Source: Amphiscolops sp. MND2022 (Eukaryota). From it: DNA of 64,000 bases. This document shows, in pieces, positions 2,117 through 25,213 of this stretch. Position 1 is the stretch's first letter, and each line of letters begins with the position of its first letter. The stretch spans positions 69,380,001-69,444,000 of the forward strand of contig OZ076409.1 of assembly GCA_964187785.1 (NCBI GenBank). The letters run 5' to 3'. A program made the position numbers and the translations under genes. The notes beneath the pieces were generated by a model. The model ran no database searches, was not told the origin of the DNA, and worked only from the letters and a program-made list of their open reading frames with translations.

Positions 2117-4783
2117 CCGTAACGGACAGTCTGTCCATTTGGCGACAGTAATGTTGGTAGCGGTGATCTTGCAGTAAGATAGTCTCTGAGTAGCTTTCTT
2201 TCAGTATTTTTAGGCGTAATTGTTGTAAAATGACGTCATTGTTTTGTTCTACTGCTATAGAGTTCGCGTAGGATAATTTCTGAAATGTTGAAAGTTTGTG
2301 ATAATCACTTTTGTGTGTAGTGAATTTTTCGAACGAAATATCAGGTAATTGATTTGCTGGATGGTCTCTAGCTGCCTTTTTACGTTGTAAAATCTGTTCT
2401 TCCGTCTCGTCATCATCCTCTGTATAGAAGATTTGTTCCTCTTCCGAAACTCCGGCCGATTGGACATGTAGTTCAATCGGTGTTGTGGGGATATCTTCTC
2501 TGATTCTGAGGATTAATTTCGCTTTTGGAGAGATTTCTAGACGTGACAGATAATCAGCCGCTGTGTTGTTTTTGCCTGGGAAGTGTGCTATTGTGAAGTT
2601 GAACGGGATCACATAATCACAAGCATTCCATAATGTCGGCGGAATACTTTTAGTTTGAAAAAAGCGTGTGACGGACTTGTTGTCTGTGAGTATAATTACC
2701 GGTTTTTGCGTTCCCCAAAAGATATGTCCAAATTCCTTGAAGGCAAAGAAAATTGCTAAGAATTCCGTGGCATAGATGGACATTTTCAATTGGGTAGGAC
2801 TAAAAGTCTTGGATCCATAAGCTACTGGTGCGAAAGCTTTCCTCGTAGAAGTGTACTTCTCGAGTGGATCGTCTTCGATGAGAACTGCGTACCCTGCGGC
2901 CGAAAAGCTGGCATCGGTCATAAGGGCTATTTGCTTGTTCGGTAAGGGTTGTTTGAGTGCCAGTTCGCAACATCGATCAAGAGCCTTGTTTATCTCGGTA
3001 AATTTTTCCAATAGGTCCGGTGTTACCAGGACTTTTTCAACTTTAGTGAGCAGTTTGAAAAACGGCGTTAGTTTTTCTGATAGTCTTGGGATGTAGTTTC
3101 GGTAATAGTTCAAAAATCCCAAGTAACGCTGTAGTGCTTTCTTGGATTTCGGGAATTTCGTATTTTCTAGGAAATTTTGGACCCGTGGTCTCTGCGGCTT
3201 CACTCCAGCAGGAGTGATGGTGCGTCCCAGAAAGTCGATTTCCGTTGCGCCAAAATGGCATTTATGCATCGTAAGCTTGAGACCAGCGTTTTGCATGCAT
3301 TGGAATGTGGCCCTCAGGTTGTTGATGAGTTGTTCAGCATCGTTAGCAGCAATGCCAATATCATCAACATATTGGGCGCATTGGTCTGCTTTGATGACTT
3401 TGTCCAAGTATTCGCGCATGAAACTAGAGAAGGCCGATAGGGCTCTGCTGAGACCCTGTGCCAATCTTCTGTACGCGAAAGTTCTGCTGGCAAAATTGAA
3501 AGCAAGCATTTTAATGCACCGTTGGTCCGCCATTTGTAGGCAATGGTAAGCTTGCGAAAGGCCAACTTACAGAATAGCTTTTTCCCAGCCATGTGTTGGG
3601 CCGCGTCTGTAAGCGTACTTACTGGATGGTTATTGTTGATGTAATCATCCGATATCAAGTTGTTAATTTTACGCAAGTCGACTAAAAGTCGCAGTTTGCC
3701 ATTGGGTTTCTTTCGTGCAAAAATGGGGCTTGCGTACTTAGAGAATGGGAGTGTTGTAATGATCCCATAGCCGCTATGGGATCATTACAACACTCCCATT
3801 CTTTAAGTACGCAAGCTCCATTTTTGCACGAAAGAAACCCAATGGCAAACTGCGACTTTTAGTCGACTTGCGTAAAATTAACAACTTGATATCGGATGAT
3901 TTCGCGGCTGATATCGGATGATATCGCTGCGATGTATCAAGGCTAGTTCCACAAGGATGTCTTCTTTGAGGTTAATTGGGGTTGGTAAACTTTGACTGTA
4001 GGCCGGAGAGTTGTCTTTCGGGGTCAATTTGACCTTGAAATCTTCGTTCATGCCGATATCAAATCGATGTCTTGCGAATATATCATGGAATTCAACAAGT
4101 AGGTCTTCTATGCGCGCTATTTCAGCAGGTTGAAACATAGAGTCTGTCCAATCAAACTTGGATAGGAATTGACGTCTCGACTCAGAGTCGTCCTGAGGAT
4201 TAAGTTTTTCCAATTCCTGGAGGTTGATCAGTTCTGACAAAATCCGTTTTTGAATCGGGGTATGATGCTGAGGGTCCCCAGGGTCCTCTGGTGTTGGAAA
4301 CCAGTAGTTTTCCTTGAAGTCCTCAGGCTTAGTAGATTTGATCAAGCTGCTTGCATAGTAAGCAGCGTTTTCAGGATTGTCCTGCAAAAGGTGCCATGTG
4401 GTCACTGGGTCAATAGGTTTGACATATTTCATCTGTTCCGGTGTAAGGACAGTGAAATTAGCAACTTGTGTACCTCTTTTGAGGGTATAGAGACTGTCGG
4501 TAAAATTGTTCAGGTGAACGGATACTTGACCATTGGTCAATGTGACTAGAGCAGCGCAGAAAGCAATATCGCCATCATCCGTAAGGGTGTGGCTCGGTTG
4601 AAGGATCCCGGTAACTGTAGTATCCTCGTACAGTTGTGAAGCCATGAGGACCCAGTGTCGGTCACTAGGTGGGATGGTTACATCCTCTCTAATGCAAATG
4701 GGTTCCATGAAATTTGTATATTTGTGAACTGCAGTTTTGAGCTGCATTGAGAAGAAAAGATAATTTAGGACGCCTTGTCGCAT
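1923..4783 (-). pseudogene. Gypsy reverse transcriptase / RNase H, disrupted
   Basis: QYVDDI, IDFLG, LQRYLGFLNYY, TDASFSAAG and NTAADYLSR motifs. The N-terminal part (ORF 3878-4783) is separated from the rest by the fold-back insertion at 3772-3930 and a frameshift near 3560. Confidence 0.9.
3643..3901. repeat. Fold-back inverted duplication inside RT (~129-bp arms, 1-nt spacer at 3772)
   Basis: 3773-3901 is the reverse complement of 3643-3771, with two mismatches seen. A short scrambled filler follows to ~3930. Confidence 0.95.
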
Positions 4784-4824
4784 GTCCAGAATGGTGTTAT
4801 TCCTTTGAAGGAAGGAAAGACCAA

Positions 4825-5607
4825 TTAATGTCCGTTTGCAACCATTATTTGGAAGTTGGGAGCTGGACCCTCTTTAATAATAGACTGAGGGGCTAATACT
4901 CGGATTTTACGTAGATCAGCTTCAGGGATTGCGCTAGATAGAGCTCCCGTGTCTACAAGGCCATCTTGTGTTAGTTCGCCAAAATCCATTGGAAAGTAGA
5001 GCATTCGTCGTTTGTATTTGAGGCCAAGATTGGTAGTCGGCGGCACATAGTCCGGTACCCCTGTTCTGGTGACCAGGGTGCTCACATAGCGTGCCGCAAC
5101 GGCTGTGACCACGGAGACCTGTGGTCCCTCATGGTGAAATTCATAACCGACATTGGATTGAGTGGTTTGATGGGCGAGCTGTGCGCCATGTTGCCGTGGG
5201 TCAACTGGTGCTTTGGTAAGAACTGTATTTAGGGCTTGGTCAGTTTCAAAAGAATCTGGCTCTATATTCGAGGTCTGTTTGTCAAAATTGTGGTAGAAGT
5301 ACAGATGATGTTGATTGTAGCAGTTAGCCTCCCAGTAGGGGTCAAAACCATAGTCGGCGTCAGGATAGTATGGGTTATAGTCATCAATGAGGGGTATAAG
5401 TGGTATAGTAGTAGTATCAGTTTGTAGTCTGCTGGACATAGAGTCCAAAGTGGTAAGAAAATTAGGTGGAGTTTTCATCTGCTGCGGCCAGTCAGCTGAT
5501 GAAGTTTCTTTAAGAGCTGTATAATACTCAATGTAATATATATTTGGAGGGTCGGATATTATGTACTGTCGTACACGGAGTTTTTCATGTATTTGGAGTC
5601 GTGGCAA
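4825..5607 (-). pseudogene. Gypsy aspartic protease region
   Basis: LVDTGALSSAI retropepsin active-site motif, then IMVANG. The frame ends prematurely. Confidence 0.8.
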
Positions 5608-5609
5608 AT

Positions 5610-7121
5610 CTAGTTTTTTGGATTCTTTAAGATGGACGTGGTTTGTTTATTTTTCGCGTCTTCTTGGCTGGTGGACTTATCAGTGGCCGTGGTGTCAACC
5701 AGTTTAAGGTTTTTGGGCTTGAGGTGGGCTCCAGCGCCTTTCCAACATCTTTCCGCCTGGTGGTTCGTTTTGTCGCAAGTTGGACATTTTGGATATTCTT
5801 TCTTGGTATCCTGTCCGTCGTTGCGGCGTTGTTCCTCCTTTCTTTTAAGTTTGCGGCAATCGTCTTTGACATGTCCAGGTTTCTTGCAATAGTTGCAAGT
5901 AATGTTTGGGTCAATGCCAGAGGAAAGAAGGCCAGTTCCCGGTCGTGTTGCTGTAGGGGCAGTGGACATTGTTGGTACTGGAATGTCGTCCCCCTCCTCA
6001 AGTACATTGAGCTCAAGCTCTCGTTCTAGATGGGTGACAATTTCCTCATAGGTGGCGTTTTCAAGTCTAGCCATATTGACGGAGCGTTTCAATTTTGGAA
6101 GCAACTTGGCATAGAGGAGACTATCGATCATGGCCTGGGCGTTCTCGCCAAACGCTTTTTCAGCTCCTTGGTTTAATTCTTCAAGGAAGTCGGGTAGTTT
6201 CATGGTGTTCGGATCAAACACCAATCTGTGCCATTTGTGTTTGGCGGTCGCCTGGGACTCAGGTTTGACGTATTTCCGACGAAATACAGCTAGAATGTCT
6301 TCCAATGTTTGCCTGTTTGCCGTATTGATGATACGGAAAGTTTGTAGGGCATTTTTTTGCAACAGTGAATGAAAATGATTGATGGAATTTTGACGATGCA
6401 GGGGATCTCGAGATAGCATGGGACGTCCAGTGAGAAACTCGGGAACCATATGTGGGGTAGGTTTGGCTCCTGTCACCATGTCGCGATGTTGTTCGCTATT
6501 TATAGAGTTTGTTGAACTCTCTCTAGACCTCAGTCTACTATTTTCCTGTGTAAAACATGTTCTAGAACGATTTTCTCATGTTTTCTGCGAATTTCCTACT
6601 TCGGCGTTCCATTGTAGGTCACTGGACCTTCGGTCCTTTAACGTGAAATCGGTCGACCTTGGGCTAGGATGTGGCCCGTTGGACTCCCGGTCCACCATGG
6701 TGAAATTAGGTCTCCCCTGCATTTCTAGTGTATTTTGGATGGAAGGAAGCACTGTACTTGTTATTGCAGCTGTAATTGCATCCTTAATTTGGGAATTCAA
6801 ACCAGTTTTAATTTCATTGAGCTTTCTAGACATTTGATTGGAAATTTCCTCGCTTATCAACCTAGAAGTCTCAATTGTGATTTCACTGTTTTCCCTGCTG
6901 TTGGTATTAAGTAAGGACCTAAAATCTTCTCCTATAACATTTGAGCTTTGTTGCGGTCTGCTAGACCCTGAGTCCAAATTCACTTCATTTTCACTAACAT
7001 TATTCTCTTCATCTTCCCTAGAGTAACTTCCAAGCATTATGTCAACATTTTCTACATCGAACAGCATGTCTAACTGTCTAGAACGACGTTCTTTAGCCTT
7101 TTGCTTTCTCGTGGAAGGCAT
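5610..7121 (-). pseudogene. Gypsy gag (two ORFs: 6576-7121 and 5610-6479)
   Basis: CNYCKKPGHVKDDC and CPTCDKTNHQAERC zinc knuckles, positioned upstream of the protease. Confidence 0.85.
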
Positions 7122-8918: not shown

Positions 8919-10550
8919 CTGAAAATGATGGCAAAAGTAAGGGGCTCACTGCCCGTACTGACAACCCAGGGAAATCCATCGGTGGCCATCGGTGGACCAC
9001 CAATGGCCATCGCTGGGGGGAAATTAGCTTACGTGGAGGAACATTAAAATGAAAATTTCGTTCAACATTTCTAGCAACTGAATGTTGGTACACGAAAGAC
9101 CTTGAAACGATATTCGCAAACTTAATGCATCAAAGCCTAACAAAATGGGAAAATTATAAGGACCGGTTCTGAAGTATCTGTAAACCCTGTTTGCAGTTTC
9201 AGAACGTGTCCGAAAAACCTTTTCCCACTGGTTATCCAGTGAGTTTAGATCTTACTCTAGTAATTTTTTTGGGTGATTTTAGATCTTGGCGATGCAGGCC
9301 TACTATCCTCAAAATTTCATCCATCGTTCTAGTTAGTTGAAGTATTCATGCGCATTGCACTGTAAAAACAACGGGAGTAAACTGGCTTGATAATGCTTTG
9401 GACAATCACAACCTGTGCAATAATACGTAAGAAAACTAGGATAGAAAATTTCCCCGAGGTTTCTCCGGTAAAGTAGTTTCCAACAGCAGACTGAAAACTA
9501 GCATAGCAGTAATAATACAGTCTGAAAACTAGCATAACCTATTCAACTAACTCAAACATTAGATGAACTTAATATGTATCACTCAATCAAAGTGCAAATT
9601 TCGACCTCAAAACTGCAAACCTTATCACAACTTTTTATTTTGACATTTTAGCCCGATTGTTTTTGATTTAACTGATTCAAAATGCTACGAAAGAAATGCT
9701 TGAAACATGGAGCCATTTTCCTGGAAGAATTAGAAAGAACAGCATGAGAAACAAGAAATGTTTTTAACAGAAAACACAAACTGTTGACATGTCCTGTTGA
9801 CATGTACTGTTGACAGTGAACTTCCGCTGATGAATTAGTATATGATCAGCTGCAGTTTCGCCTGAGTCACCTTGATAATTGAGGTATGTTATTATTTCCA
9901 TTTTCTTTAGCAACGAGAAAATCTTGGTTTTAGCATCGGATATTTTTTCTAAACCTGTAAAAAAAAGAGCTTTGTATGCATGAAAAGTGCATGCATGAAA
10001 ACAGCATTTATGAAAACAGTATGCATGAAAACAGCATACAAAAGTGTCAAGCAGATTATTCTGGGGAACGCGAAGTGAAATTTGAATGATTGGACCTTGA
10101 ATGAAAAATAGTGCACTGGAGCAGCACAAAGAATTCAATAACCGTTGGGAGCAAGGAATTGAGAGTCTTTCATAGCAAAAAGTTAAGAAGTTGATTATTG
10201 TCAAAAATGGAGTATTTAAGCCTTCTAATTTTGTGTTTATTTTTCATGGCTGTGCTTTGGTCATCAAATCAACTTCATTTGGGAGTCAGTTGATCTGGGA
10301 TAACCAATGGTAGCTTTTACAAAAATGGTCTTGTTGGCATTTTTGCGTCGTTACTGTTTGTCTCTAACTAGAAGTCAAGAACAGTTCATGTGAACCGGAG
10401 CATATTTAGTTTGAGTGGGAAACTCTGAGTGAGGGGATTTTTAAAAAATTAATATCATTTTAATTTCATAGTGTTTTCCTGATCGGATTGGAGAAATTTC
10501 CCAATTTGTGAAAACGGTCGAAAGATCATTGGAAGTGTACCGCTTATCTG

Positions 10551-11098
10551 TTTTTAGTCGGCGCATTTTAGTAGAAAATGTGCCCGACTCTTACAGTGGG
10601 TAGTTTTTTTAGACACGAAAGGTTCACTTTTCTTTCTGTTTCTTTTCTTTTTGTTCAGATCATTTCTTCAACAACTTGGCGAACCTAAGAAGCGCGTCCA
10701 AAACGAAAAAGAAAACAAAACAAACAGAACCTCGACAACACACTAAGGATCTCCCCTAAGCCTCCCCCCCCCTCACTTTTTTTCGGCACTATGCGACTTT
10801 TTTTGAAACTTTTTGGATTGCACCAAAGGGTCCCCTCTTTATTTGTTTCGATATTTTAAAACACAATGGATGTCAGAAAATTCCAAAGGGTCCTTTTACA
10901 TTTTTCGGCACTGTGACACTGTTCAAAAATCACATTTTAAAATTTTTTTGGGCAATTTTTTTAAGTCCTTAAAGGGTCCCCCCTTCAATTTTTTTCATAT
11001 TTTGCCACCAGCTGGAGTTTCACAAAACCCAAAGAGTCCCCCCTTTTACAATTTTGAGCCTTAGATATAGCGCCGACTTTGGCCGTTCTCGGCTTGTT
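10551..11098 (+). mobile_element. Helentron-associated (HINE/DINE-1-like) non-autonomous element
   Basis: T-run, then AGTCGGCGC subterminal IR with a nearby partner GCCCGACT. The 3' GCGCCGACT is followed by a short stem-loop (GGCCG-TTCT-CGGCT) and TT. Several related copies are in the window. Confidence 0.7.
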
Positions 11099-11629
11099 TT
11101 TTCTCATACTGTTTCATTTCTCGTACTTGTTTTCAATAAAAGGATGTCGACAGCAAAACGTTCTTTCTTGCTGTTGATATCTCAAACCTTTATATCATTG
11201 AAGAGCAGAATAAAGAATAGTGCCCTCAAAAATGAATCTAGCGATGAAACCGTTTTTAATCTAAGACAGCTTGTGATTTCACCCGCACACTGATGTGATG
11301 AATTCGGTTCTCCGAATAACTTCTCATGAGGCTCTGGAAATCTCTCAATTAATTTTCATACAACGTTTTTCACCAAAGTAGTATGGGGATTCCCGATACG
11401 GGCCACAAAAACCCCAAAAATTAAAAGTCCTCAAAACCATTGATTTTAAGCACTTTTTAGAAAACAAATCATCAAAAATAGTGTTTTGCCATGAAGCAAA
11501 ATTCGCGAAGCTTCGCACTAACCTCTATGATGCGCGAAGCTACGCAATGTGTAATAATAACACGTTGCTGTACAGCCAGCATTAATGCACAACCAACATT
11601 AATACACACCAATGAAAAATAACTAATAA

Positions 11630-12079
11630 ATGGCACAGCTTCACAATTACCTCTCATTCAAAGACTTTGTTGAAAAATACGGACTAAAAAACGAAGCAAC
11701 TTCCAATGTAAAAATAAAAGAAATACTTGATAGGCTTGGTGCCTCCGGCGAAATAAATACAGTGTGTGGGCAAAGCTGTGCAATATACATGAGAGATGAT
11801 AAGTTTAACACTACCAGTGGTATAGTTAACTTACATCCCTCAGTGGGAACACATTGGGTTATGTTTATAAATCAAAATTATTTTGATTCATATGGATGCC
11901 CACCCCCAACTAATATACTTAATCATATTAAAAATGGTATTTATTCAGAATATCAAATTCAGACCAACGACAGTTATTGCGCGGCGTATTGTTTATACAC
12001 ACTGTATCTCACAAATAAAATTGGGTTCAAAAATGCAGTACTAAATTTATACTATCAAACTTTCAAACCTAATAAATGA
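11630..12079 (+). CDS. Adenain-like (Polinton PRO) cysteine protease
   Basis: GTHWV, YFDSYG and QIQ...YCAAYC give the His/Asp/Gln/Cys catalytic arrangement of adenoviral and Polinton proteases. Confidence 0.9.
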   Translation: MAQLHNYLSFKDFVEKYGLKNEATSNVKIKEILDRLGASGEINTVCGQSCAIYMRDDKFNTTSGIVNLHPSVGTHWVMFINQNYFDSYGCPPPTNILNHIKNGIYSEYQIQTNDSYCAAYCLYTLYLTNKIGFKNAVLNLYYQTFKPNK

Positions 12080-12291
12080 AGAAAATTAAGAATTATTCAA
12101 CTCAATATAAAATTATCCAACCCGCGCAGCTACGCGACAGCTCTCGCACACAGCTTCACAATCAAAATCAAAATCATGGAAAAAATTCATCGAAGCCGCA
12201 GAGTTTCACACATAAGAAAACATTATCAAAAGATAGGCAAGAATTTATAAATAACATTTCCGCTAGTGGATTCAAACAATTTAATCTATAA
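12076..12291 (+). CDS. Small basic protein, unknown function
   Basis: ATGA overlap with the protease stop. It has the same CTAATAAATG start context as the other element genes. Confidence 0.6.
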   Translation: MKKIKNYSTQYKIIQPAQLRDSSRTQLHNQNQNHGKNSSKPQSFTHKKTLSKDRQEFINNISASGFKQFNL

Positions 12292-12339
12292 TGCGCGCAG
12301 CTTCGCGGAGCTGAGAAAAAAGGATTTTTTTCTTAATAA

Positions 12340-13353
12340 ATGGATCTATCAAGCTTCGTAACATATGATAAAAAAGAATCTCTTCTTTTAAGTATTGCAA
12401 AATCTAATCAAGAAATTGTTGAAAATACTCATTCTAAACCACAAGAAACTCTAGAATTTAAAATGACTAAACAAAAAGAATCTTTCTCATTTGATGTTCC
12501 ATTACTACTGCCTGAAAAATGGATGATGGGAGTAACAAGCCTAGAAGTATACAACACTGTATATAACATTACTGAAAAGAATAACAACCTTGAAATTCTT
12601 CTAACAAAACAACAACTCGAAGAGTATAGAGTTGACACTGAATTAGTGCCAAAAATAAAGGATTTGTATGAAACATCTGATGATAAATTTATAGAAAAAA
12701 CTAATACACTTATAACTTATAGTTATACTAAAAAGAAGAAAAAACTTACTAGAAAAGACTTTAACCAACTCAAGAAATTAATTGAAGTTTTTAACTATCC
12801 TGATCAACAAATACATATTCCTGACTTTGAAATTGAACATGATTCCTTTGGAATACAACTAACACCAGGAGCATATGAATTAGTTGATATCAATGCTTCC
12901 GTAAAACAAATAATTAATGAAAGTGATTATGATTTTAAATTCAACATAATACCTGACACAATATCAATGAAATCAGTTTTAACAACCTCAAACCCTATTC
13001 ATTTTAACTCCGAACTTAACAAAGTCCTGGGTTTTACACAACGTGATTACCCACCCGGAACTCACACTTCAGAAAAACCAGTCATGATAACAACCACCGA
13101 CAAAGTTCATCTGAAGTGCGACTGTGTAGATGGTTCAATTGTTAATGGTATACGAGAGCAAATTTTATTTTCTTTCAATTTAAGCGCACCTCCCGGATAT
13201 AAAATTATAAAAGAACCCACAACTGTTTTGTACAAATCAATTAACAAAACACGACTGGACACCATTCAATTTTTCCTTGAGGACTCTAATCATGATTCAG
13301 TTGATTTCAACGGGGAGACACTCACCTTCACAATTCAAATCATCAAAATATGA
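12340..13353 (+). CDS. Minor capsid (penton-like) protein
   Basis: The C-terminal VHLKCDCVDGSIVNG...ILFSF...PGYKII.EP...LY..IN...I.F.LED....VDFNGE.LTF pattern is typical of Polinton/adintovirus pentons. Recognised by eye. Confidence 0.75.
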   Translation: MDLSSFVTYDKKESLLLSIAKSNQEIVENTHSKPQETLEFKMTKQKESFSFDVPLLLPEKWMMGVTSLEVYNTVYNITEKNNNLEILLTKQQLEEYRVDTELVPKIKDLYETSDDKFIEKTNTLITYSYTKKKKKLTRKDFNQLKKLIEVFNYPDQQIHIPDFEIEHDSFGIQLTPGAYELVDINASVKQIINESDYDFKFNIIPDTISMKSVLTTSNPIHFNSELNKVLGFTQRDYPPGTHTSEKPVMITTTDKVHLKCDCVDGSIVNGIREQILFSFNLSAPPGYKIIKEPTTVLYKSINKTRLDTIQFFLEDSNHDSVDFNGETLTFTIQIIKI

Positions 13354-13382
13354 TAGGATTTAATACAATTTTTTTCTAATAA

Positions 13383-13937
13383 ATGAGTTATAATAAATTT
13401 ATAAATAATTCATATTGTGTTGGTGGAAAACATTATTCTCCCACCACAAATGTTCATGGAGAAATTACAAACACTGGGATACAGATGGGCAGGCCCGTAC
13501 ACACATTACGTGGCAACTGTGTAGTGTGTAACAGAAATAAGAGTCTAATTGTATCTGAACGAACAATAGATGGGGAAGGATTGGGGGACTTTTTCAAACA
13601 TTTAGGTTCTGCAGCCAAAAATGTTGGAAAGAAAATACTCAATAACCCAGCAAGAGCTCTAGAAATAGCAGCAAATATTGGAACTGCAGCAGCAAGTAAA
13701 AATCCACGATTAATTGCCGCAACTGCCCCCGATGTTATTAAATTTGTTCATCAAGGGAAGGGCCTATACAAAGCTGAAGCATTGTCGAGTAAAGGCGGAA
13801 GCTATCGCGAAAGCTATCGCAGCAAAGCAGGCAAAGCAGCAGGCAACGCAAGCGGCAGCAAAGCAGCTAACGCAAACAACACAAACCGAAAAGCAAGAAC
13901 TAATGGTAAAGGCCTGTATCTGGGGAAAATCCACTAG
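13383..13937 (+). CDS. Putative virion core / membrane-lytic precursor with adenain-type cleavage sites
   Basis: N-terminal C..H/CxxC module. IDGE|G is followed by the amphipathic GLGDFFKHLGSAAKNVGKKIL. GKGLY occurs twice, and the tail is basic. Confidence 0.6.
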   Translation: MSYNKFINNSYCVGGKHYSPTTNVHGEITNTGIQMGRPVHTLRGNCVVCNRNKSLIVSERTIDGEGLGDFFKHLGSAAKNVGKKILNNPARALEIAANIGTAAASKNPRLIAATAPDVIKFVHQGKGLYKAEALSSKGGSYRESYRSKAGKAAGNASGSKAANANNTNRKARTNGKGLYLGKIH

Positions 13938-13963
13938 TTATATGCATTAATTATACTTAATAA

Positions 13964-15121
13964 ATGTATTCAATTCACACCCGAGATGACTTGGAAAAAT
14001 TAAAAAAATTACAAGAAACAAAATCCTTAATTTTTAAAGAAAGATTAAAAGAGAAACTAGGGAAACAAGACTTTCATTATGACCTTGAAGAAGTTTTTGA
14101 ACCTGTTACTACAAAGCAGGTAGAATCAAATGAAAAACAAATACAAGCACTACATGATTCTACCCGCGAAGCTTCGCGCGCAGCTTCACAAACAGTACAA
14201 GCAATAAAAAATCAAACACAGGCTATTCGAGAATCGAGTAACGCTTTGAATAAAAATTTACAGAAATCAATTAAAGAAGGAATACAAGAATATGATGAAA
14301 TTACGAATCGTAATAATCAGCTTCTTACGAGTCTTGTTACTTCCAATCAAGTTGATTCTAGTATTGTAAAAACAGTTTCTAATTTACTTAATGACAAAAA
14401 CAAAAGCCAATTTAGTTTAGAACCATTTATACAAGACTATCCAAATATATTCATAATTAATCCCCATAACCCACAACAAGTACTAATCAAAGGTTCAACA
14501 ATGACTTTCGAGAATGGGAATTCATACAATTTAAATGATCCAGATCTTCAACATTTTATAACTAATACACAATTTGACAAACAAATAAATAACTGGGGTC
14601 CAATTTATAACTTCTTAAATGATATGAAATATGATCTAAATTATGGAGATAAAAAATCATACAGATATCAATTTATTAAAGAATTGTATAAATATATGCA
14701 GGGCTTCACACAAGGCTATGCGGGGAGCTCTGCGACAGCTAACGCGACAGCTAACGCGACAGCTAACGCGACAGCTAACGCGACAGCTCCCACACAGGAC
14801 TACACACAGGGCTTCACAGGAAGTGGATTGTGCGATAGCTATCGCGGAAGCTATCGCAAATATTCACGAAGTTCCACGCACAGCCCTGCGCGAAGCTACG
14901 CACGAAGTTCCACACAACAGTACATTTTCCTCCCATCTGACCCAGACGAATTAGTCGATAAATTGAAATTACTTTATTTTGAAAAAGTTGGAGGAAATGA
15001 TAGTTTTTTGATTAATGAAGAAATTATTGCAATTATAGACAAGTTATTGGAGTATGAATGCATATCACCTTCTCAACACCAAAATATACGAAGTTCCACA
15101 CAAAGCAACTTAATTACTTAA
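13964..15121 (+). CDS. Conserved Polinton-type coiled-coil protein, function uncertain
   Basis: The C-terminal LPSDPDELVDKLKLL...GGND....EIIAIIDKLLE motif resembles a recurrent Maverick/adintovirus ORF. It has an N-terminal coiled coil and an (ATAN)n low-complexity insert. Confidence 0.6.
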   Translation: MYSIHTRDDLEKLKKLQETKSLIFKERLKEKLGKQDFHYDLEEVFEPVTTKQVESNEKQIQALHDSTREASRAASQTVQAIKNQTQAIRESSNALNKNLQKSIKEGIQEYDEITNRNNQLLTSLVTSNQVDSSIVKTVSNLLNDKNKSQFSLEPFIQDYPNIFIINPHNPQQVLIKGSTMTFENGNSYNLNDPDLQHFITNTQFDKQINNWGPIYNFLNDMKYDLNYGDKKSYRYQFIKELYKYMQGFTQGYAGSSATANATANATANATANATAPTQDYTQGFTGSGLCDSYRGSYRKYSRSSTHSPARSYARSSTQQYIFLPSDPDELVDKLKLLYFEKVGGNDSFLINEEIIAIIDKLLEYECISPSQHQNIRSSTQSNLIT

Positions 15122-16177
15122 AGGATCAGTTTGTGGATTAAAGATCTTGTAATTTGGATTAGATTCATTACAAATCCTGTACCTACTCCCATTTTTATCT
15201 TCCAATCTGTTTATTAAAAGGTAGTTGAATTTTTCGTTCCATGCTTCTCTACACAAACTTTTGAATTCCTCATAAGACATATCAAAACCTGATATGTCCC
15301 TATGAATATGTTCTACATCTTTCAGTGTTTGTTGAAATAAAATTATGATATTACTATTGTTTCTAACTGTCTTTTTTGGTGCATCAAAATAACTCTGACA
15401 TAAATAATAAACATCACAAGATTTGTGTCTTCCCCTAGTAAAAAATGGATCAATCAATTTCTGGTTGGAGTCTAACATATCATCAAATACTACACAACAT
15501 CCCCTATACTCTTCCAAATCCCCCACATTTTCTTCCACTTCTATTCCTTGCATATCAATATTCTCATATTGTTCCGGACTCCTTGTAATGATACGAATTT
15601 GTTTCTCTGGATCTTCCAAACGAATCAATCGTAATTTATTCAACAACAAATGAGTCTTACCACAAAATGATGGGCCAACTATTAATGTTCTATTAGTTTC
15701 GTTCGCGTTAGCTTCCGCGTTAGCTCCCGCAGGGCTATTCGCGTTAGCTTCCGCGACAGCTCCCGCGTTAGCACCCACATTATTATTATTACTACTGTGT
15801 GAAGGGGTGCCTCGCGGGAACTCCCGCTGTAGCTCTCGTGATAGCTGTCGCGAATAGCCATGCGGAAGTAAATCATACAGAGCCCCGCGCAGAGCTCCAC
15901 CCCCAGTATGCTGATTATAGTGTTGATTATACTGTTGATTATAGTGTTGTTTTTTAATGTGTGACCTTAAATAACTTTTATTTAATTCCTTATTACAAAA
16001 TTCACACCTCACCTTTTTATTAAAACATTGAATGCATGAAGAGTATGTTTTACCATTTTTGTATGAATAAAAAGTATTACAATTCTTCAAAGTTTCACAG
16101 TCTTTACATCTTTTTTTACTAGAGCAATCATCACATAAACTTTTTTCACTACTTTTATTACAAATTAAGCAATTCAT
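15110..16177 (-). CDS. A32/FtsK-like DNA packaging ATPase with N-terminal zinc-finger extension
   Basis: Walker A GPSFCGKT, Walker B VVFDD, FTRGRH and LCQSYF motifs. Multiple CxxC pairs and a C2H2 finger at the N terminus. Confidence 0.9.
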   Translation of the reverse strand: MNCLICNKSSEKSLCDDCSSKKRCKDCETLKNCNTFYSYKNGKTYSSCIQCFNKKVRCEFCNKELNKSYLRSHIKKQHYNQQYNQHYNQHTGGGALRGALYDLLPHGYSRQLSRELQREFPRGTPSHSSNNNNVGANAGAVAEANANSPAGANAEANANETNRTLIVGPSFCGKTHLLLNKLRLIRLEDPEKQIRIITRSPEQYENIDMQGIEVEENVGDLEEYRGCCVVFDDMLDSNQKLIDPFFTRGRHKSCDVYYLCQSYFDAPKKTVRNNSNIIILFQQTLKDVEHIHRDISGFDMSYEEFKSLCREAWNEKFNYLLINRLEDKNGSRYRICNESNPNYKIFNPQTDPLSN

Positions 16178-16253
16178 TTATTTAGTATTATTTAGTAAAA
16201 AATCACTAAAGTTTCACTAAATACCTCTAAATACCTCTCAGCATCACTATGTA

Positions 16254-16453
16254 NNNNNNNNNNNNNNNNNNNNNNNNNNNNNNNNNNNNNNNNNNNNNNN
16301 NNNNNNNNNNNNNNNNNNNNNNNNNNNNNNNNNNNNNNNNNNNNNNNNNNNNNNNNNNNNNNNNNNNNNNNNNNNNNNNNNNNNNNNNNNNNNNNNNNNN
16401 NNNNNNNNNNNNNNNNNNNNNNNNNNNNNNNNNNNNNNNNNNNNNNNNNNNNN
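16254..16453. other. Assembly gap (200 N) whose flanks overlap by 107 bp
   Basis: 16147-16253 is identical to 16454-16560. Collapsing the overlap removes 307 bp and gives a 10068-bp element with one symmetry axis. Confidence 0.9.
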
Positions 16454-16484
16454 CACTACTTTTATTACAAATTAAGCAATTCAT

Positions 16485-16950
16485 TTATTTAGTATTATTT
16501 AGTAAAAAATCACTAAAGTTTCACTAAATACCTCTAAATACCTCTCAGCATCACTATGTAATCACTAAGCAAATTTCACTAAATCACTAAGAATCTCTAA
16601 GAATCTCTAAGAGTATTTTATTTCTCTAAGATTAGAGAATATAGTGAAATTTAGTGAAAATAATGCTCTTAGTGAAACCTTAGTGATTTAGTGAGAAATT
16701 TAGAGATTCTTAGAGAAATTTAGAGATCACTAAATAATCACTAAATAATCACTAAGGTTTCACTAAGAGCATTATTTTCACTAAATTTCACTATATTCTC
16801 TAATCTTAGAGAAATAAAATACTCTTAGAGATTCTTAGAGATTCTTAGTGATTTAGTGAAATTTGCTTAGTGATTACATAGTGATGCTGAGAGGTATTTA
16901 GAGGTATTTAGTGAAACTTTAGTGATTTTTTACTAAATAATACTAAATAA
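16485..16950. repeat. AT-rich non-coding palindrome centre made of TCACTAA/TCTCTAA and TTAGTGA/TTAGAGA units
   Basis: The arms pair exactly inward to 16688/16747. The 58-nt region 16689-16746 is asymmetric and only partly pairable. Confidence 0.9.
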
Positions 16951-18018
16951 ATGAATTGCTTAATTTGTAATAAAAGTAGTGAAAAAAGTTTATGTGATGA
17001 TTGCTCTAGTAAAAAAAGATGTAAAGACTGTGAAACTTTGAAGAATTGTAATACTTTTTATTCATACAAAAATGGTAAAACATACTCTTCATGCATTCAA
17101 TGTTTTAATAAAAAGGTGAGGTGTGAATTTTGTAATAAGGAATTAAATAAAAGTTATTTAAGGTCACACATTAAAAAACAACACTATAATCAACAGTATA
17201 ATCAACACTATAATCAGCATACTGGGGGTGGAGCTCTGCGCGGGGCTCTGTATGATTTACTTCCGCATGGCTATTCGCGACAGCTATCACGAGAGCTACA
17301 GCGGGAGTTCCCGCGAGGCACCCCTTCACACAGTAGTAATAATAATAATGTGGGTGCTAACGCGGGAGCTGTCGCGGAAGCTAACGCGAATAGCCCTGCG
17401 GGAGCTAACGCGGAAGCTAACGCGAACGAAACTAATAGAACATTAATAGTTGGCCCATCATTTTGTGGTAAGACTCATTTGTTGTTGAATAAATTACGAT
17501 TGATTCGTTTGGAAGATCCAGAGAAACAAATTCGTATCATTACAAGGAGTCCGGAACAATATGAGAATATTGATATGCAAGGAATAGAAGTGGAAGAAAA
17601 TGTGGGGGATTTGGAAGAGTATAGGGGATGTTGTGTAGTATTTGATGATATGTTAGACTCCAACCAGAAATTGATTGATCCATTTTTTACTAGGGGAAGA
17701 CACAAATCTTGTGATGTTTATTATTTATGTCAGAGTTATTTTGATGCACCAAAAAAGACAGTTAGAAACAATAGTAATATCATAATTTTATTTCAACAAA
17801 CACTGAAAGATGTAGAACATATTCATAGGGACATATCAGGTTTTGATATGTCTTATGAGGAATTCAAAAGTTTGTGTAGAGAAGCATGGAACGAAAAATT
17901 CAACTACCTTTTAATAAACAGATTGGAAGATAAAAATGGGAGTAGGTACAGGATTTGTAATGAATCTAATCCAAATTACAAGATCTTTAATCCACAAACT
18001 GATCCTTTAAGTAATTAA
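16951..18018 (+). CDS. Packaging ATPase, mirror copy
   Basis: Protein identical to 15110-16177. Confidence 0.9.
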   Translation: MNCLICNKSSEKSLCDDCSSKKRCKDCETLKNCNTFYSYKNGKTYSSCIQCFNKKVRCEFCNKELNKSYLRSHIKKQHYNQQYNQHYNQHTGGGALRGALYDLLPHGYSRQLSRELQREFPRGTPSHSSNNNNVGANAGAVAEANANSPAGANAEANANETNRTLIVGPSFCGKTHLLLNKLRLIRLEDPEKQIRIITRSPEQYENIDMQGIEVEENVGDLEEYRGCCVVFDDMLDSNQKLIDPFFTRGRHKSCDVYYLCQSYFDAPKKTVRNNSNIIILFQQTLKDVEHIHRDISGFDMSYEEFKSLCREAWNEKFNYLLINRLEDKNGSRYRICNESNPNYKIFNPQTDPLSN

Positions 18019-19164
18019 GTTGCTTTGTGTGGAACTTCGTATATTTTGGTGTTGAGAAGGTGATATGCATTCATACTCCAATAACTTGTCTATAATTGCA
18101 ATAATTTCTTCATTAATCAAAAAACTATCATTTCCTCCAACTTTTTCAAAATAAAGTAATTTCAATTTATCCACTAATTCGTCTGGGTCAGATGGGAGGA
18201 AAATGTACTGTTGTGTGGAACTTCGTGCGTAGCTTCGCGCAGGGCTGTGCGTGGAACTTCGTGAATATTTGCGATAGCTTCCGCGATAGCTATCGCACAA
18301 TCCACTTCCTGTGAAGCCCTGTGTGTAGTCCTGTGTGGGAGCTGTCGCGTTAGCTGTCGCGTTAGCTGTCGCGTTAGCTGTCGCGTTAGCTGTCGCAGAG
18401 CTCCCCGCATAGCCTTGTGTGAAGCCCTGCATATATTTATACAATTCTTTAATAAATTGATATCTGTATGATTTTTTATCTCCATAATTTAGATCATATT
18501 TCATATCATTTAAGAAGTTATAAATTGGACCCCAGTTATTTATTTGTTTGTCAAATTGTGTATTAGTTATAAAATGTTGAAGATCTGGATCATTTAAATT
18601 GTATGAATTCCCATTCTCGAAAGTCATTGTTGAACCTTTGATTAGTACTTGTTGTGGGTTATGGGGATTAATTATGAATATATTTGGATAGTCTTGTATA
18701 AATGGTTCTAAACTAAATTGGCTTTTGTTTTTGTCATTAAGTAAATTAGAAACTGTTTTTACAATACTAGAATCAACTTGATTGGAAGTAACAAGACTCG
18801 TAAGAAGCTGATTATTACGATTCGTAATTTCATCATATTCTTGTATTCCTTCTTTAATTGATTTCTGTAAATTTTTATTCAAAGCGTTACTCGATTCTCG
18901 AATAGCCTGTGTTTGATTTTTTATTGCTTGTACTGTTTGTGAAGCTGCGCGCGAAGCTTCGCGGGTAGAATCATGTAGTGCTTGTATTTGTTTTTCATTT
19001 GATTCTACCTGCTTTGTAGTAACAGGTTCAAAAACTTCTTCAAGGTCATAATGAAAGTCTTGTTTCCCTAGTTTCTCTTTTAATCTTTCTTTAAAAATTA
19101 AGGATTTTGTTTCTTGTAATTTTTTTAATTTTTCCAAGTCATCTCGGGTGTGAATTGAATACAT
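18007..19164 (-). CDS. Conserved Polinton-type protein, mirror copy
   Basis: Protein identical to 13964-15121. One synonymous difference seen (GTC vs GTG; 14956/18172). Confidence 0.6.
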   Translation of the reverse strand: MYSIHTRDDLEKLKKLQETKSLIFKERLKEKLGKQDFHYDLEEVFEPVTTKQVESNEKQIQALHDSTREASRAASQTVQAIKNQTQAIRESSNALNKNLQKSIKEGIQEYDEITNRNNQLLTSLVTSNQVDSSIVKTVSNLLNDKNKSQFSLEPFIQDYPNIFIINPHNPQQVLIKGSTMTFENGNSYNLNDPDLQHFITNTQFDKQINNWGPIYNFLNDMKYDLNYGDKKSYRYQFIKELYKYMQGFTQGYAGSSATANATANATANATANATAPTQDYTQGFTGSGLCDSYRGSYRKYSRSSTHSPARSYARSSTQQYIFLPSDPDELVDKLKLLYFEKVGGNDSFLINEEIIAIIDKLLEYECISPSQHQNIRSSTQSNLIT

Positions 19165-19190
19165 TTATTAAGTATAATTAATGCATATAA

Positions 19191-19745
19191 CTAGTGGATT
19201 TTCCCCAGATACAGGCCTTTACCATTAGTTCTTGCTTTTCGGTTTGTGTTGTTTGCGTTAGCTGCTTTGCTGCCGCTTGCGTTGCCTGCTGCTTTGCCTG
19301 CTTTGCTGCGATAGCTTTCGCGATAGCTTCCGCCTTTACTCGACAATGCTTCAGCTTTGTATAGGCCCTTCCCTTGATGAACAAATTTAATAACATCGGG
19401 GGCAGTTGCGGCAATTAATCGTGGATTTTTACTTGCTGCTGCAGTTCCAATATTTGCTGCTATTTCTAGAGCTCTTGCTGGGTTATTGAGTATTTTCTTT
19501 CCAACATTTTTGGCTGCAGAACCTAAATGTTTGAAAAACTCCCCCAATCCTTCCCCATCTATTGTTCGTTCAGATACAATTAGACTCTTATTTCTGTTAC
19601 ACACTACACAGTTGCCACGTAATGTGTGTACGGGCCTGCCCATCTGTATCCCAGTGTTTGTAATTTCTCCATGAACATTTGTGGTGGGAGAATAATGTTT
19701 TCCACCAACACAATATGAATTATTTATAAATTTATTATAACTCAT
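19191..19745 (-). CDS. Core / membrane-lytic-like precursor, mirror copy
   Basis: Identical to 13383-13937 except GLGDFF to GLGEFF (13589/19539). Confidence 0.6.
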   Translation of the reverse strand: MSYNKFINNSYCVGGKHYSPTTNVHGEITNTGIQMGRPVHTLRGNCVVCNRNKSLIVSERTIDGEGLGEFFKHLGSAAKNVGKKILNNPARALEIAANIGTAAASKNPRLIAATAPDVIKFVHQGKGLYKAEALSSKGGSYRESYRSKAGKAAGNASGSKAANANNTNRKARTNGKGLYLGKIH

Positions 19746-19774
19746 TTATTAGAAAAAAATTGTATTAAATCCTA

Positions 19775-20788
19775 TCATATTTTGATGATTTGAATTGTGA
19801 AGGTGAGTGTCTCCCCGTTGAAATCAACTGAATCATGATTAGAGTCCTCAAGGAAAAATTGAATGGTGTCCAGTCGTGTTTTGTTAATTGATTTGTACAA
19901 AACAGTTGTGGGTTCTTTTATAATTTTATATCCGGGAGGTGCGCTTAAATTGAAAGAAAATAAAATTTGCTCTCGTATACCATTAACAATTGAACCATCT
20001 ACACAGTCGCACTTCAGATGAACTTTGTCGGTGGTTGTTATCATGACTGGTTTTTCTGAAGTGTGAGTTCCGGGTGGGTAATCACGTTGTGTAAAACCCA
20101 GGACTTTGTTAAGTTCGGAGTTAAAATGAATAGGGTTTGAGGTTGTTAAAACTGATTTCATTGATATTGTGTCAGGTATTATGTTGAATTTAAAATCATA
20201 ATCACTTTCATTAATTATTTGTTTTACGGAAGCATTGATATCAACTAATTCATATGCTCCTGGTGTTAGTTGTATTCCAAAGGAATCATGTTCAATTTCA
20301 AAGTCAGGAATATGTATTTGTTGATCAGGATAGTTAAAAACTTCAATTAATTTCTTGAGTTGGTTAAAGTCTTTTCTAGTAAGTTTTTTCTTCTTTTTAG
20401 TATAACTATAAGTTATAAGTGTATTAGTTTTTTCTATAAATTTATCATCAGATGTTTCATACAAATCCTTTATTTTTGGCACTAATTCAGTGTCAACTCT
20501 ATACTCTTCGAGTTGTTGTTTTGTTAGAAGAATTTCAAGGTTGTTATTCTTTTCAGTAATGTTATATACAGTGTTGTATACTTCTAGGCTTGTTACTCCC
20601 ATCATCCATTTTTCAGGCAGTAGTAATGGAACATCAAATGAGAAAGATTCTTTTTGTTTAGTCATTTTAAATTCTAGAGTTTCTTGTGGTTTAGAATGAG
20701 TATTTTCAACAATTTCTTGATTAGATTTTGCAATACTTAAAAGAAGAGATTCTTTTTTATCATATGTTACGAAGCTTGATAGATCCAT
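19775..20788 (-). CDS. Penton-like minor capsid protein, mirror copy
   Basis: Protein identical to 12340-13353. Confidence 0.75.
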   Translation of the reverse strand: MDLSSFVTYDKKESLLLSIAKSNQEIVENTHSKPQETLEFKMTKQKESFSFDVPLLLPEKWMMGVTSLEVYNTVYNITEKNNNLEILLTKQQLEEYRVDTELVPKIKDLYETSDDKFIEKTNTLITYSYTKKKKKLTRKDFNQLKKLIEVFNYPDQQIHIPDFEIEHDSFGIQLTPGAYELVDINASVKQIINESDYDFKFNIIPDTISMKSVLTTSNPIHFNSELNKVLGFTQRDYPPGTHTSEKPVMITTTDKVHLKCDCVDGSIVNGIREQILFSFNLSAPPGYKIIKEPTTVLYKSINKTRLDTIQFFLEDSNHDSVDFNGETLTFTIQIIKI

Positions 20789-20836
20789 TTATTAAGAAAA
20801 AAATCCTTTTTTCTCAGCTCCGCGAAGCTGCGCGCA

Positions 20837-21052
20837 TTATAGATTAAATTGTTTGAATCCACTAGCGGAAATGTTATTTATAAATTCTTGCCTATCTTTT
20901 GATAATGTTTTCTTATGTGTGAAACTCTGCGGCTTCGATGAATTTTTTCCATGATTTTGATTTTGATTGTGAAGCTGTGTGCGAGAGCTGTCGCGTAGCT
21001 GCGCGGGTTGGATAATTTTATATTGAGTTGAATAATTCTTAATTTTCTTCAT
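20837..21052 (-). CDS. Small basic protein, mirror copy
   Basis: Protein identical to 12076-12291. Confidence 0.6.
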   Translation of the reverse strand: MKKIKNYSTQYKIIQPAQLRDSSRTQLHNQNQNHGKNSSKPQSFTHKKTLSKDRQEFINNISASGFKQFNL

Positions 21053-21498
21053 TTATTAGGTTTGAAAGTTTGATAGTATAAATTTAGTACTGCATTTTTG
21101 AACCCAATTTTATTTGTGAGATACAGTGTGTATAAACAATACGCCGCGCAATAACTGTCGTTGGTCTGAATTTGATATTCTGAATAAATACCATTTTTAA
21201 TATGATTAAGTATATTAGTTGGGGGTGGGCATCCATATGAATCAAAATAATTTTGATTTATAAACATAACCCAATGTGTTCCCACTGAGGGATGTAAGTT
21301 AACTATACCACTGGTAGTGTTAAACTTATCATCTCTCATGTATATTGCACAGCTTTGCCCACACACTGTATTTATTTCGCCGGAGGCACCAAGCCTATCA
21401 AGTATTTCTTTTATTTTTACATTGGAAGTTGCTTCGTTTTTTAGTCCGTATTTTTCAACAAAGTCTTTGAATGAGAGGTAATTGTGAAGCTGTGCCAT
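21049..21498 (-). CDS. Adenain-like protease, mirror copy
   Basis: Protein identical to 11630-12079. Confidence 0.9.
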   Translation of the reverse strand: MAQLHNYLSFKDFVEKYGLKNEATSNVKIKEILDRLGASGEINTVCGQSCAIYMRDDKFNTTSGIVNLHPSVGTHWVMFINQNYFDSYGCPPPTNILNHIKNGIYSEYQIQTNDSYCAAYCLYTLYLTNKIGFKNAVLNLYYQTFKPNK

Positions 21499-23654
21499 TT
21501 ATTAGTTATTTTTCATTGGTGTGTATTAATGTTGGTTGTGCATTAATGCTGGCTGTACAGCAACGTGTTATTATTACACATTGCGTAGCTTCGCGCATCA
21601 TAGAGGTTAGTGCGAAGCTTCGCGAATTTTGCTTCATGGCAAAACACTATTTTTGATGATTTGTTTTCTAAAAAGTGCTTAAAATCAATGGTTTTGAGGA
21701 CTTTTAATTTTTGGGGTTTTTGTGGCCCGTATCGGGAATCCCCATACTACTCACCAAAGATCCTTCAACTGCGAAACTTGCTTTTGGTTTACATTGTTTC
21801 CTCACTGTGCCCACTTTCTCATTTCGGTGCCAAAACCGACTCTAGAAATCTCTCTCGCGGGTTTGTTGCAAGAAGTAAATCCATCGCATTTTGGATAACG
21901 CCAGTGTCTGCAAGTTGTTACATTAAAACTCTGGAAAATTGCTGTTGAGTTGTCCAAATAGAACTGTAGTGAAATAAAAGTTGTGAAAATTTCGATCTGA
22001 TAGCTTCTTTTGAAATAAATTTAATCAAAATTTTTGTCACGAGAATCAAATGCTTACCTACCTATCAAATGTTAAGAGAAATGAGTGCTCAAAGTAAAAT
22101 AATTTGCAATAATGTTGGAACATGAAAACGGTGGAGATAGCAAGAAGCGGAACAAAAAATTCTGTCATTGTATTTCAATTCTTGGTAAAATAATCTCGAT
22201 AGTTGTCTGAAATGTGTAATTCTGACAATTTGAATGACACAGTTGAAATTTTATTAATCCGACAAAGAGAAGAAACACTATATAGCTGAGCTCAAAAGTA
22301 CGTCTTTTCTTTCGTATGGAACTGGAAATAATTTTGGGTAATTTTACAGAAATTGAGCTTCTGGATGGTTAAAAAAAATTGTTCCACTCACCAATGAAAG
22401 TTATTACAGCAAGAGTAAACTCCATGGCACAACTGAAATTTAAAGCTAAGATTATCAAACTGATAACTTTTTTTTATTACTCTTGACACTAAGTAGACTC
22501 CAGCTTCAATCGAAAAACAACAAACTATGAAATGAAAATGCTTGTATAACCTGAAATTGTTCTGAAGAGTTCTAAAACGTATTTTGAGATTATTACACAC
22601 ATTATGAGCTTGAGAATTTTTGTGCTACTTGAGGTTAATATCTGGTAACAGATCCACGACTATTATATATTAAAATGCAATTTTTAACGAGTAGTTAAAA
22701 TTGAATGGGCGCCCATTGAGATATAGTTTATCGAGAAAGAGGGCTTATATCTTTAATCAAAGAACGAAGTATCTCTTAGATACAACTGAACTAGTTTGAA
22801 AAACCGATAATTGTTCAAAACAATGAAATGATTAACATTGAGTCAAACTTTCTTGGTGAAGAAACTGTATTACCCAAAAGAAAGTAGATGAAGCAAAATT
22901 ATATGTTGAATTGTATTCGAATGTAAAGTTAGTACATAAGCGTTATGTACATAAGCGTTATCAGTTTCAACCAATATTGCCAAATCGGACAGGAAAGTTA
23001 CTAATTAACTCAGCAGCCCTTTTTTCCAAAAATTTTCTTGTTCCACTCTTTCATTCACAAGTCATTGAATTTCTTACACAGAAATCAACTTCAACGCAAT
23101 TAGAGTCATAGCATTAGTATACGCCGATGTTTAAAACTGATTCGGAAAGTGCCCTGAAATGTGTCTGAAATGCCTTGAGATTTCAAAACCTTTTCACTTT
23201 ACAACCAATTTCAGACAATTTTGAACCGTTTTGAATATTGCTAAGACTTCGAACACCTTCAGAGCTCAAAGACAAAACAAATAGCTATCATGTGCGCTTT
23301 TACGAAGAGCAACATGAACTTTATCCCAAAAATGTACCTCAAAAATGTACCTCTAAAAGTACCTCAAAAATGACTTCGAAAAACCTGAAAACTTTGAAAT
23401 TTTTCAAACTTTGATTATTTGGAACAATTTTTAACAAAGTTTTTCAGCGTTATAAAATACACAATGTTCTAAAACAGTGAAACTTGCAATCACGTATAAC
23501 TTCCAGAAGCGTTTTGTATCTAGCAAGACCCCCAAAAAACGACAATTTCAATTCTTGACCAATTAGTCGCATTTCAGCATTGTTTTCACTTGTTTTTGAA
23601 AATCAGATTTCCCACAAAAATCGAAGACGAAAAACATTACTTATCCAAGGGCTA

Positions 23655-24699: not shown

Positions 24700-24873
24700 T
24701 ATTTCATAATAGATGCTTCAGGTTTTTTGATTCAGGAAAACGCCCTAGAATACCAAGAAGGAAACAAAAGTTTCTACCGCGTTGAGCAATTTCCCTACTT
24801 CCCCAGTGAACATTTTCAAAGTTCGAAAACAAAACAGTAAATTTTTCAATGAAACTTCCGACGGATTTACGTA

Positions 24874-25213
24874 TTTTTAGTCGGTGCTTTTATCAATAAA
24901 AGAGCCCGACTATTACAGTCACTCGTTTTTCTCTTTTTTCAAGACAGACTCGAAGCGACGAAGGTTAACGTTTAACTAAAGGAAACTAAATACCAGGGAA
25001 ACGCATCTAAGTTATTCCAAAGGGTCTCCCCTTTGGTTTTTTTTACTTTTTAAACGTAGCCTACAAAACCGGATAAGTTTAAAGTGTCCCCCTTTCGGTT
25101 TTTTTTCGGCACTGTGCGACCTTTTCTCTATTTCTTTTTGTCTCCAAAGGGCCCCCCTTCGATTTTTATGGAGCCTTAGATATAGCGCCGACTTGAGACG
25201 TTCCCGTCTTGTT
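24874..25213 (+). mobile_element. HINE-like element
   Basis: TTTTTAGTCGGTGC start; GCGCCGACT plus GAGACG-TTCC-CGTCTT hairpin at the end. Confidence 0.7.

Follow-up and report, generated by a model that had tools for sequence, protein, structure and literature searches.

How does a palindrome of some 10 kb, encoding proteins for virion morphogenesis on both arms and none for replication or integration, come to stand in a genome with the ends and target duplication of a complete transposon? The question is raised by a 64,000-nt stretch of DNA from Amphiscolops sp. MND2022 (GenBank assembly GCA_964187785.1, contig OZ076409.1, positions 69,380,001 to 69,444,000 of the forward strand), the whole of which is called the window below, with positions counted from its first letter. 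A preliminary description had supposed that the missing functions come in trans, either from complementary palindromic segments of a segmented Polinton-like virus or from a helper Polinton, with the element acting as a satellite or defective unit. We conclude that the element at 11377-21751 arose by fold-back from an abundant Polinton family in which such products recur, and that it is neither a segment of such a virus nor a satellite that spreads. It is likely one of a recurring series of snap-back defective genomes that form while the family replicates by protein priming and that the integrase of a helper inserts into the chromosome.

A palindrome with Polinton ends

The element begins with AGTAGT and finishes with ACTACT, and its arms (11377-16253 on the + strand and 16875-21751) are complementary at all but 2 of their 4,877 nt (positions 13589 and 14956). 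It is flanked on both sides by CACCAA (11371-11376 and 21752-21757, + strand), a 6-bp target duplication that the preliminary description had already recognized. Each arm harbors 1 private substitution, for which all matched copies (31 of 31 and 43 of 43) carry the other letter. Inside the palindrome, positions 16254-16453 are a 200-N scaffold gap, and 107 nt (16147-16253) are duplicated across it, recurring at 16454-16560; the gap is probably an unmerged overlap, which by arithmetic would give an element of ~10,070 nt. The right-hand contig comprises ~260 nt of the left arm, the apex, the entire right arm (an inverted copy of the left arm, 16747-21751, - strand), and the right flank. The left flank is single-copy in the assembly, and no empty allele of the insertion site was found there.

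Each arm encodes 6 uninterrupted open reading frames (ORFs), as previously noted, of 149, 71, 337, 184, 385, and 355 aa, the 71-aa ORF being variable. The ORF lists bear out the absence of pPolB, integrase, and major capsid from the arm. Lacking all 3, the palindrome is not an autonomous Polinton.

The parent is an abundant 15-kb Polinton

We searched the source genome (1.07 Gb) for homology to the terminus of the window element and identified many matches, often paired ~15 kb apart. All 7 of the 15-kb elements fetched carried the window arm continuous with 10 kb more; a 6-bp target duplication was present in 6 of these 7 full-length copies. The left arm (11377-16253) corresponds to the left ~4.9 kb of this parent, with 97.8% identity including indels and 0.74% substitutions over 4,877 nt relative to the nearest copy (C7:30836785-30851782; handles for loci are ours). 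The terminus at 11377-11608 (+ strand, AGTAGT start) is the ~232-nt terminal inverted repeat (TIR) of the parent subfamily, and both ends of the palindrome are 100% identical to the left end of the nearest parent, whose right TIR is 90% identical. Exact matches to 2 allelic left-arm markers numbered 59 and 289 (348 in all), and the family therefore has at least ~350 copies.

The extra part of the nearest parent encodes a second A32-like ATPase (Pox_A32, E 2.1e-6, over the cut-off), an rve integrase (PF00665, E 7.1e-11), a double-jelly-roll (DJR) capsid (PF21738, E 7.8e-21), a 1303-aa pPolB, and 2 unassigned proteins; the pPolB, integrase, and major capsid genes thus lie beyond the fold-back point. 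The 1303-aa ORF has PolB motifs and falls with Atlas clusters in which 27-39% of members carry PF03175 (top score 0.95), and a Pfam scan returned Endonuclease_7 only, with no PF03175 at E<=0.1. PF03175-positive PolB belongs to the Alpha adintovirus class (PMC8502044). With pPolB, rve integrase, DJR capsid and penton, A32 ATPase, TIRs, and a 6-bp duplication all present, the parent is a Polinton/Maverick. The functions missing from the palindrome must come in trans, as had been supposed, and this family is the helper that was found. Judging by its gene content and by a 6-bp target duplication of the kind that full-length copies carry, the window palindrome probably depended on such a helper.

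TIR length ranged from ~233 to 701 nt among 10 full-length copies, and several parents had TIRs that were 98-100% identical. Some of the TIRs in these 10 copies had incorporated either subterminal sequence from one of the ends or the beginning of the protease ORF. This variation suggests repeated end-to-end copying. The 2 A32-like ATPase genes of the parent are arranged in tandem (L011:4486-7071) and their products are divergent (23% identical), with the fold-back hotspot between them; ATPase 2 has a hydrophobic N-terminal segment. Within the parent pPolB (L012:575-4486) are a domain resembling endonuclease VII (PF02945, E 3.3e-5) and, at the N-terminus, a region rich in Cys and His. A head-to-tail dimer and tandem partial duplications were observed at C3:13.58-13.60 Mb, C1:28.66 Mb, and C5:26.59 Mb, the C5 repeats lying at about parent position 4,580.

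The fold-back junction

The centre of the palindrome derives from the AT-rich region between the 2 ATPase genes, which forms a loose inverted repeat in the parents and folds better than 100 of 100 shuffles. Positions 16675-16755 are identical, letter for letter, to 8 of 37 ordinary copies, and beyond them the left arm appears in mirror image. The parent match closes with 9 nt (AATCACTAA, 16747-16755, + strand) that are complementary to TTAGTGATT at 16680-16688 (+ strand), and between these halves of the inverted repeat lies a 58-nt asymmetric spacer (16689-16746, + strand) of parent sequence, within the letter-for-letter match and the hairpin fold. A pattern for this junction with the same spacing matched at 1 place in the genome, and the whole centre matched the window locus only, among 40 scored of 519 candidates.

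The element is a whole-molecule palindrome derived from 1 parent end, and its junction lies at a short inverted repeat of the parent, both being structural marks of a snap-back genome. Judged from its sequence, the junction is the trace that would be expected of a nascent 3' end folding back and being extended.

Fold-backs recur at other loci, all from the left arm

We identified 4 further loci with fold-back junctions of their own (2 clear and 2 probable), all in the same ~100-nt AT-rich hotspot and in different sublineages. Including the window locus there are 3 clear and 2 probable fold-backs, roughly at least 1-2% of copies. The tally is a lower bound, with exact junction patterns of limited gap ranges and with 100 of 222 and 100 of 289 matches listed for the left-side markers; patterns with other gap ranges gave 0 matches.

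At C1223:1-5034, a left-arm fold-back stands at the contig start, with 229 nt mirrored around a 12-nt spacer, 11 nt of microhomology, and 2 differences between the arms; some of its ORFs are broken. The left-arm fold-back at C4:73917179-73922609 has a 61-nt spacer, and its contig begins after a 200-N gap, with the apex ~509 nt on. Its mini-arms differ at 10 substitutions, 9 of which are transitions, indicating that this palindrome has aged in the genome. At C6:52008601-52014316 and C53:1-5700, left arms turn into reversed centre sequence and then reach a gap or the contig end; both are probable fold-backs, and their flanks are host repeats. Microhomology at the junctions measured 9 nt in the window, 11 nt in C1223, ~6-10 nt at C6:52.01 Mb, and ~7 nt in C53, and the spacers of the 5 loci were 58, 12, 61, ~17-21, and ~55 nt. 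For each of 4 fold-back arms tested, a full-length copy was nearer (0.51-2.88%) than any other fold-back arm (1.05-9.6%), and the C4 arm differed by 7-9% from the other 4 arms; these distances indicate independent origins. Queries with the terminus and centre, as the preliminary description had advised, recovered full-length parents carrying this arm. That description had named, as what would refute it, a parent containing the arm together with the window copy being the only palindromic derivative; such parents exist, but the 4 other independent fold-backs show that the window copy is not the only one.

Several candidates were rejected as palindromes. C5:14.15 Mb holds a full-length element whose TIR is ~700 nt long, and the short copies at C2:35.37, C2:90.29, C1:4.01, and C1:50.92 Mb have internal deletions. 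The elements at C12:47243767 and C8:3600690 are continuous copies of 1 sublineage with a local inversion of the hotspot core, the outcome expected of a double template switch. Among 8 odd close copies, 6 had no fold-back.

We also searched for the reciprocal, right-side palindrome. None of the 96 matches to a marker just right of the centre, all of which were listed, formed an inverted pair, and on C1-C4 a left-arm marker adjoined in 35 of 35 (judged by eye against the left-marker matches listed). Four right-side junction patterns, exact and of limited gap range, gave 0, 2, 0, and 0 matches, both of them in continuous copies. A subterminal right-end marker gave 467 matches and is not discriminating because long TIRs have it at both ends. 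Fold-backs are therefore one-sided as found, with 5 left-arm loci versus 0 right-arm loci. This bias may stem from the chemistry of priming, from 20-kb palindromes being assembled less well, or from a limit to what the capsid can hold, and it offers a testable handle on a packaging-size filter at re-entry into the germline.

Origin of the palindrome

The findings are probably best explained by a defective genome made by snap-back during replication. A free linear copy of the parent would have been replicated outside the chromosome by protein-primed strand displacement from the left terminus, and the nascent strand would have stalled or come free within the AT-rich repeats that separate the 2 ATPase genes. 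Its 3' end may then have paired with the 9-nt complement 58 nt upstream and been extended back to the terminus, giving a hairpin whose intact origin would allow it to be copied into a linear duplex with 2 left ends. The integrase of a full-length copy in the same cell would have inserted this duplex, supplying in trans a function for which the duplex has no gene. To our knowledge, the replication and integration of Polintons have been inferred from gene content and not observed. If a free linear form replicates by strand displacement, fold-backs that recur, whose priming repeats can be mapped and whose target duplication is normal, are the trace one would expect it to leave.

Several points weigh against this account. 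No reads cover the junction (contigs of 1 sequencing run with a small share of the data do not reach it), and ~260 nt separate the scaffold gap from the apex. The window locus alone has 2 arms and 2 flanks; the other 4 have part of a second arm or none. Searches for the partner termini of C6 and C53 gave 0 matches in the assembly, and the contigs at these loci stop within or just past the spacer, where a local inversion is possible. No replication intermediate or activity was observed. Finally, an extrachromosomal origin and one in the chromosome are inseparable by sequence alone because several parents have TIRs that are 98-100% identical.

An origin in situ, which we regard as doubtful, would start with an integrated full-length copy that breaks at the AT-rich inverted repeats, folds back to copy its left arm, and rejoins the right flank through TIR homology. 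Long palindromes can in general arise through short inverted repeats that lie beside a break, the original target duplication would be retained, and with so many near-identical parental TIRs the rejoining would leave little trace. However, this route requires 2 steps that end in a clean terminus, it offers no obvious reason for palindromes of the left arm only, and both ends of the element match the left end of the nearest parent at 100%, versus 90% for its right TIR.

An artefact of assembly or library preparation, through fold-back chimeric reads at the hairpin hotspot or through 2 alleles fused across the gap, is improbable, although each of the 5 junction loci coincides with a gap or the end of a contig and read support for the junction was not obtained. 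A chimera would mirror the flank, whereas the window flanks differ and yet share the 6-bp duplication; the apex, right arm, and right flank stand on 1 contig; each arm has its private substitution; and the C4 arms have aged. Moreover, 32 of 32 routinely fetched close copies were assembled through the junction region. True long palindromes are expected to break assemblies; the breaks at all 5 loci fall at the apex or close to it, and other genomes therefore probably hold more such elements than have been counted.

It is very improbable that the palindrome is a propagating satellite or a non-autonomous family kept for its morphogenesis genes. With 2 intact termini and open ORFs, it is replicable in principle, but its junction pattern occurs at 1 place, its whole centre matches nowhere else among the candidates scored, the other fold-backs have different junctions and parents, and the pN/pS of 0.34-0.44 reflects the parent family. 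The window palindrome has not spread, and a single insertion gives no sign of function. Of the helper-dependent element proposed earlier, the defective unit comes close to our answer and the propagating satellite falls with the single-copy junction.

The segmented virus proposed at the same time can be set aside as hardly credible: the arm is a coherent morphogenesis block with proper termini, but full-length parents, present in hundreds (the 348 exact marker matches), join it to integrase, major capsid, and pPolB, no complementary palindromic segment appeared in the right-side marker and junction searches above, and with the major capsid gene on the other side the split does not follow function.

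A bolder extension of the snap-back account, which we put forward as unlikely, is that the Polinton cycle regularly yields such half-genomes, filtered by size, with the inter-ATPase repeats as a built-in switch point. If so, a 10-kb left-arm product would fit a capsid built for 15 kb and a 20-kb reciprocal would not, and the insertions would be footprints of passage through virions. Integrated half-genomes could then boost morphogenesis genes, give long hairpin RNA that silences the family, or mark the start of palindromic passenger families that are poor in genes.

Proteins of the arm

The 337-aa ORF (12340-13353, + strand; mirror copy at 19775-20788, - strand) had been described as penton-like, and its predicted structure confirmed this. 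The AlphaFold2 model, built from a 70-sequence alignment, reached a predicted local distance difference test score of 90.1 and matched the mavirus penton with a Foldseek E value of 2.8e-9 (VIA Z 13.3, root mean square deviation 6.3, 229 aligned); the fold also resembles the pentons of PBCV-1, Sputnik, and adenovirus. On this model, the protein is a single-jelly-roll penton, and the cryptic major capsid for which the preliminary description had advised a structural check is ruled out for this ORF. The 355-aa ORF (15110-16177, - strand; mirror copy at 16951-18018, + strand) is, by sequence similarity, an A32/FtsK-like ATPase (ATPase 1), again in agreement with the earlier label, with a Cys-rich N-terminus, the Walker A motif GPSFCGKT, and a Pox_A32 E value of 1.7e-4, slightly under the curated cut-off.

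The 149-aa ORF (11630-12079, + strand; mirror copy at 21049-21498, - strand) has invariant H75 and C117 and nearly invariant D86 and Q111 among 26 homologs. By its motifs it is a putative adenain-like maturation protease, and it had no match to a protease family in Pfam, NCBIfam, or PDB. The basic 184-aa ORF (13383-13937, + strand; mirror copy at 19191-19745, - strand, with 1 private D-to-E substitution) has a GxG-G motif and an amphipathic segment; it may, by analogy, have a core or membrane-lytic role, and it had no significant family match in these libraries. The 385-aa ORF (13964-15121, + strand; mirror copy at 18007-19164, - strand) had no usable match in Pfam, NCBIfam, or ESM Atlas. The ORF of 71 aa (12076-12291, + strand) varies between copies, measuring 63-75 aa in 23 of 40 ordinary copies, being shorter in 2, and not being found by its start motif in 15.

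All 5 main left-arm ORFs were open in 28 of 40 ordinary close copies, and intact ORFs therefore reflect youth; those of the window palindrome would be open through its very young age and not through selection. The pN/pS of 0.34-0.44 for the arm ORFs comes from comparison with other sublineages and hence describes the parent family. Short GC-rich inserts (GCGAAGCT/GCTAACGCG-like) recur inside the ORFs at 14700-14920 and 15690-15900; their number varies between copies, with the frame mostly kept.

Surroundings of the element

A broken gypsy-type long terminal repeat (LTR) retrotransposon with reverse transcriptase, RNase H, and rve domains occupies 450-7121 (- strand) and contains a 259-nt palindrome at 3643-3901. 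At 35552-44714 (+ strand), we identified a BEL/Pao-type retrotransposon with 300-nt LTRs that are 98% alike, split ORFs, and a 219-aa ORF at 36682-37341. The preliminary description had set such elements against the intact ORFs of the palindrome; the gypsy and BEL elements are indeed split in several frames, whereas the intact ORFs are not special, given the ordinary copies that are fully open. An intronless linker histone H1 gene lies at 30113-30616 (- strand; PF00538, E 3.6e-22). A dispersed host repeat with GGGTCCCC-rich subrepeats occurs in both orientations at 10550-11100, 24870-25940, 46370-46860, 53250-53800, and 56370-56730, and the Polinton insertion lies ~280 nt from 1 of its copies.

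Comparison with known systems

The literature searched held no description of whole-element palindromic Polintons; its coverage was without most subscription papers, the founding Polinton paper, and preprint supplements. A term search for "palindrom" in the accessible text of Polinton papers returned short terminal palindromes only. Polintons are described as 13-25 kb long with 100-1500-bp TIRs and 5-8-bp target-site duplications (bioRxiv 2023.08.22.554363). The 15-kb parent falls within these limits and resembles such adintovirus-like elements in its TIRs, 6-bp duplication, pPolB, rve integrase, DJR capsid, penton, and ATPase; it differs in its 2 divergent ATPases and the endonuclease VII-like insert in pPolB. 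The window element, in contrast, is the left third only, duplicated, so that its "TIR" is the whole element. The virophages of Halocafeteria, along with its Polinton-like viruses (PLVs), also show palindromic sequence in endogenous Polinton relatives, but there palindromes of ~52 nt stand at the ends of complete elements (bioRxiv 10.64898/2026.07.28.741278), whereas here the palindrome is the whole element. Bidnaviruses, bipartite and with a pPolB related to that of Polintons, give a precedent for a segmented relative (PMC8502044); here, in contrast, no complementary segment was found and unsegmented parents are abundant.

Palindromic or subgenomic derivatives are described for protein-primed replicons. 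A hairpin/duplex derivative of the kalilo plasmid has reportedly been found, and pGKL plasmids form hairpins; these, like the derivatives of phi29, are free molecules, unlike the integrated window element. The likeness to phi29 lies in the same class of polymerase and in site-specific template switching biased to 1 end: template switching yields subgenomic molecules of 1-8 kb, mostly from 1 end (PMC4974454), and palindromic DNAs are described (PMC2175359). A snap-back defective genome is defined as a symmetric palindrome from 1 parent end (PMC13506859), and the 3' snapbacks of adeno-associated virus (AAV) carry capsid genes only (bioRxiv 2020.10.20.346957). The window element shares with AAV and other snap-back viral genomes the form of a symmetric palindrome from 1 parent end; it differs in being integrated in the host with a target duplication, and in deriving from a linear double-stranded DNA element with protein-primed replication.

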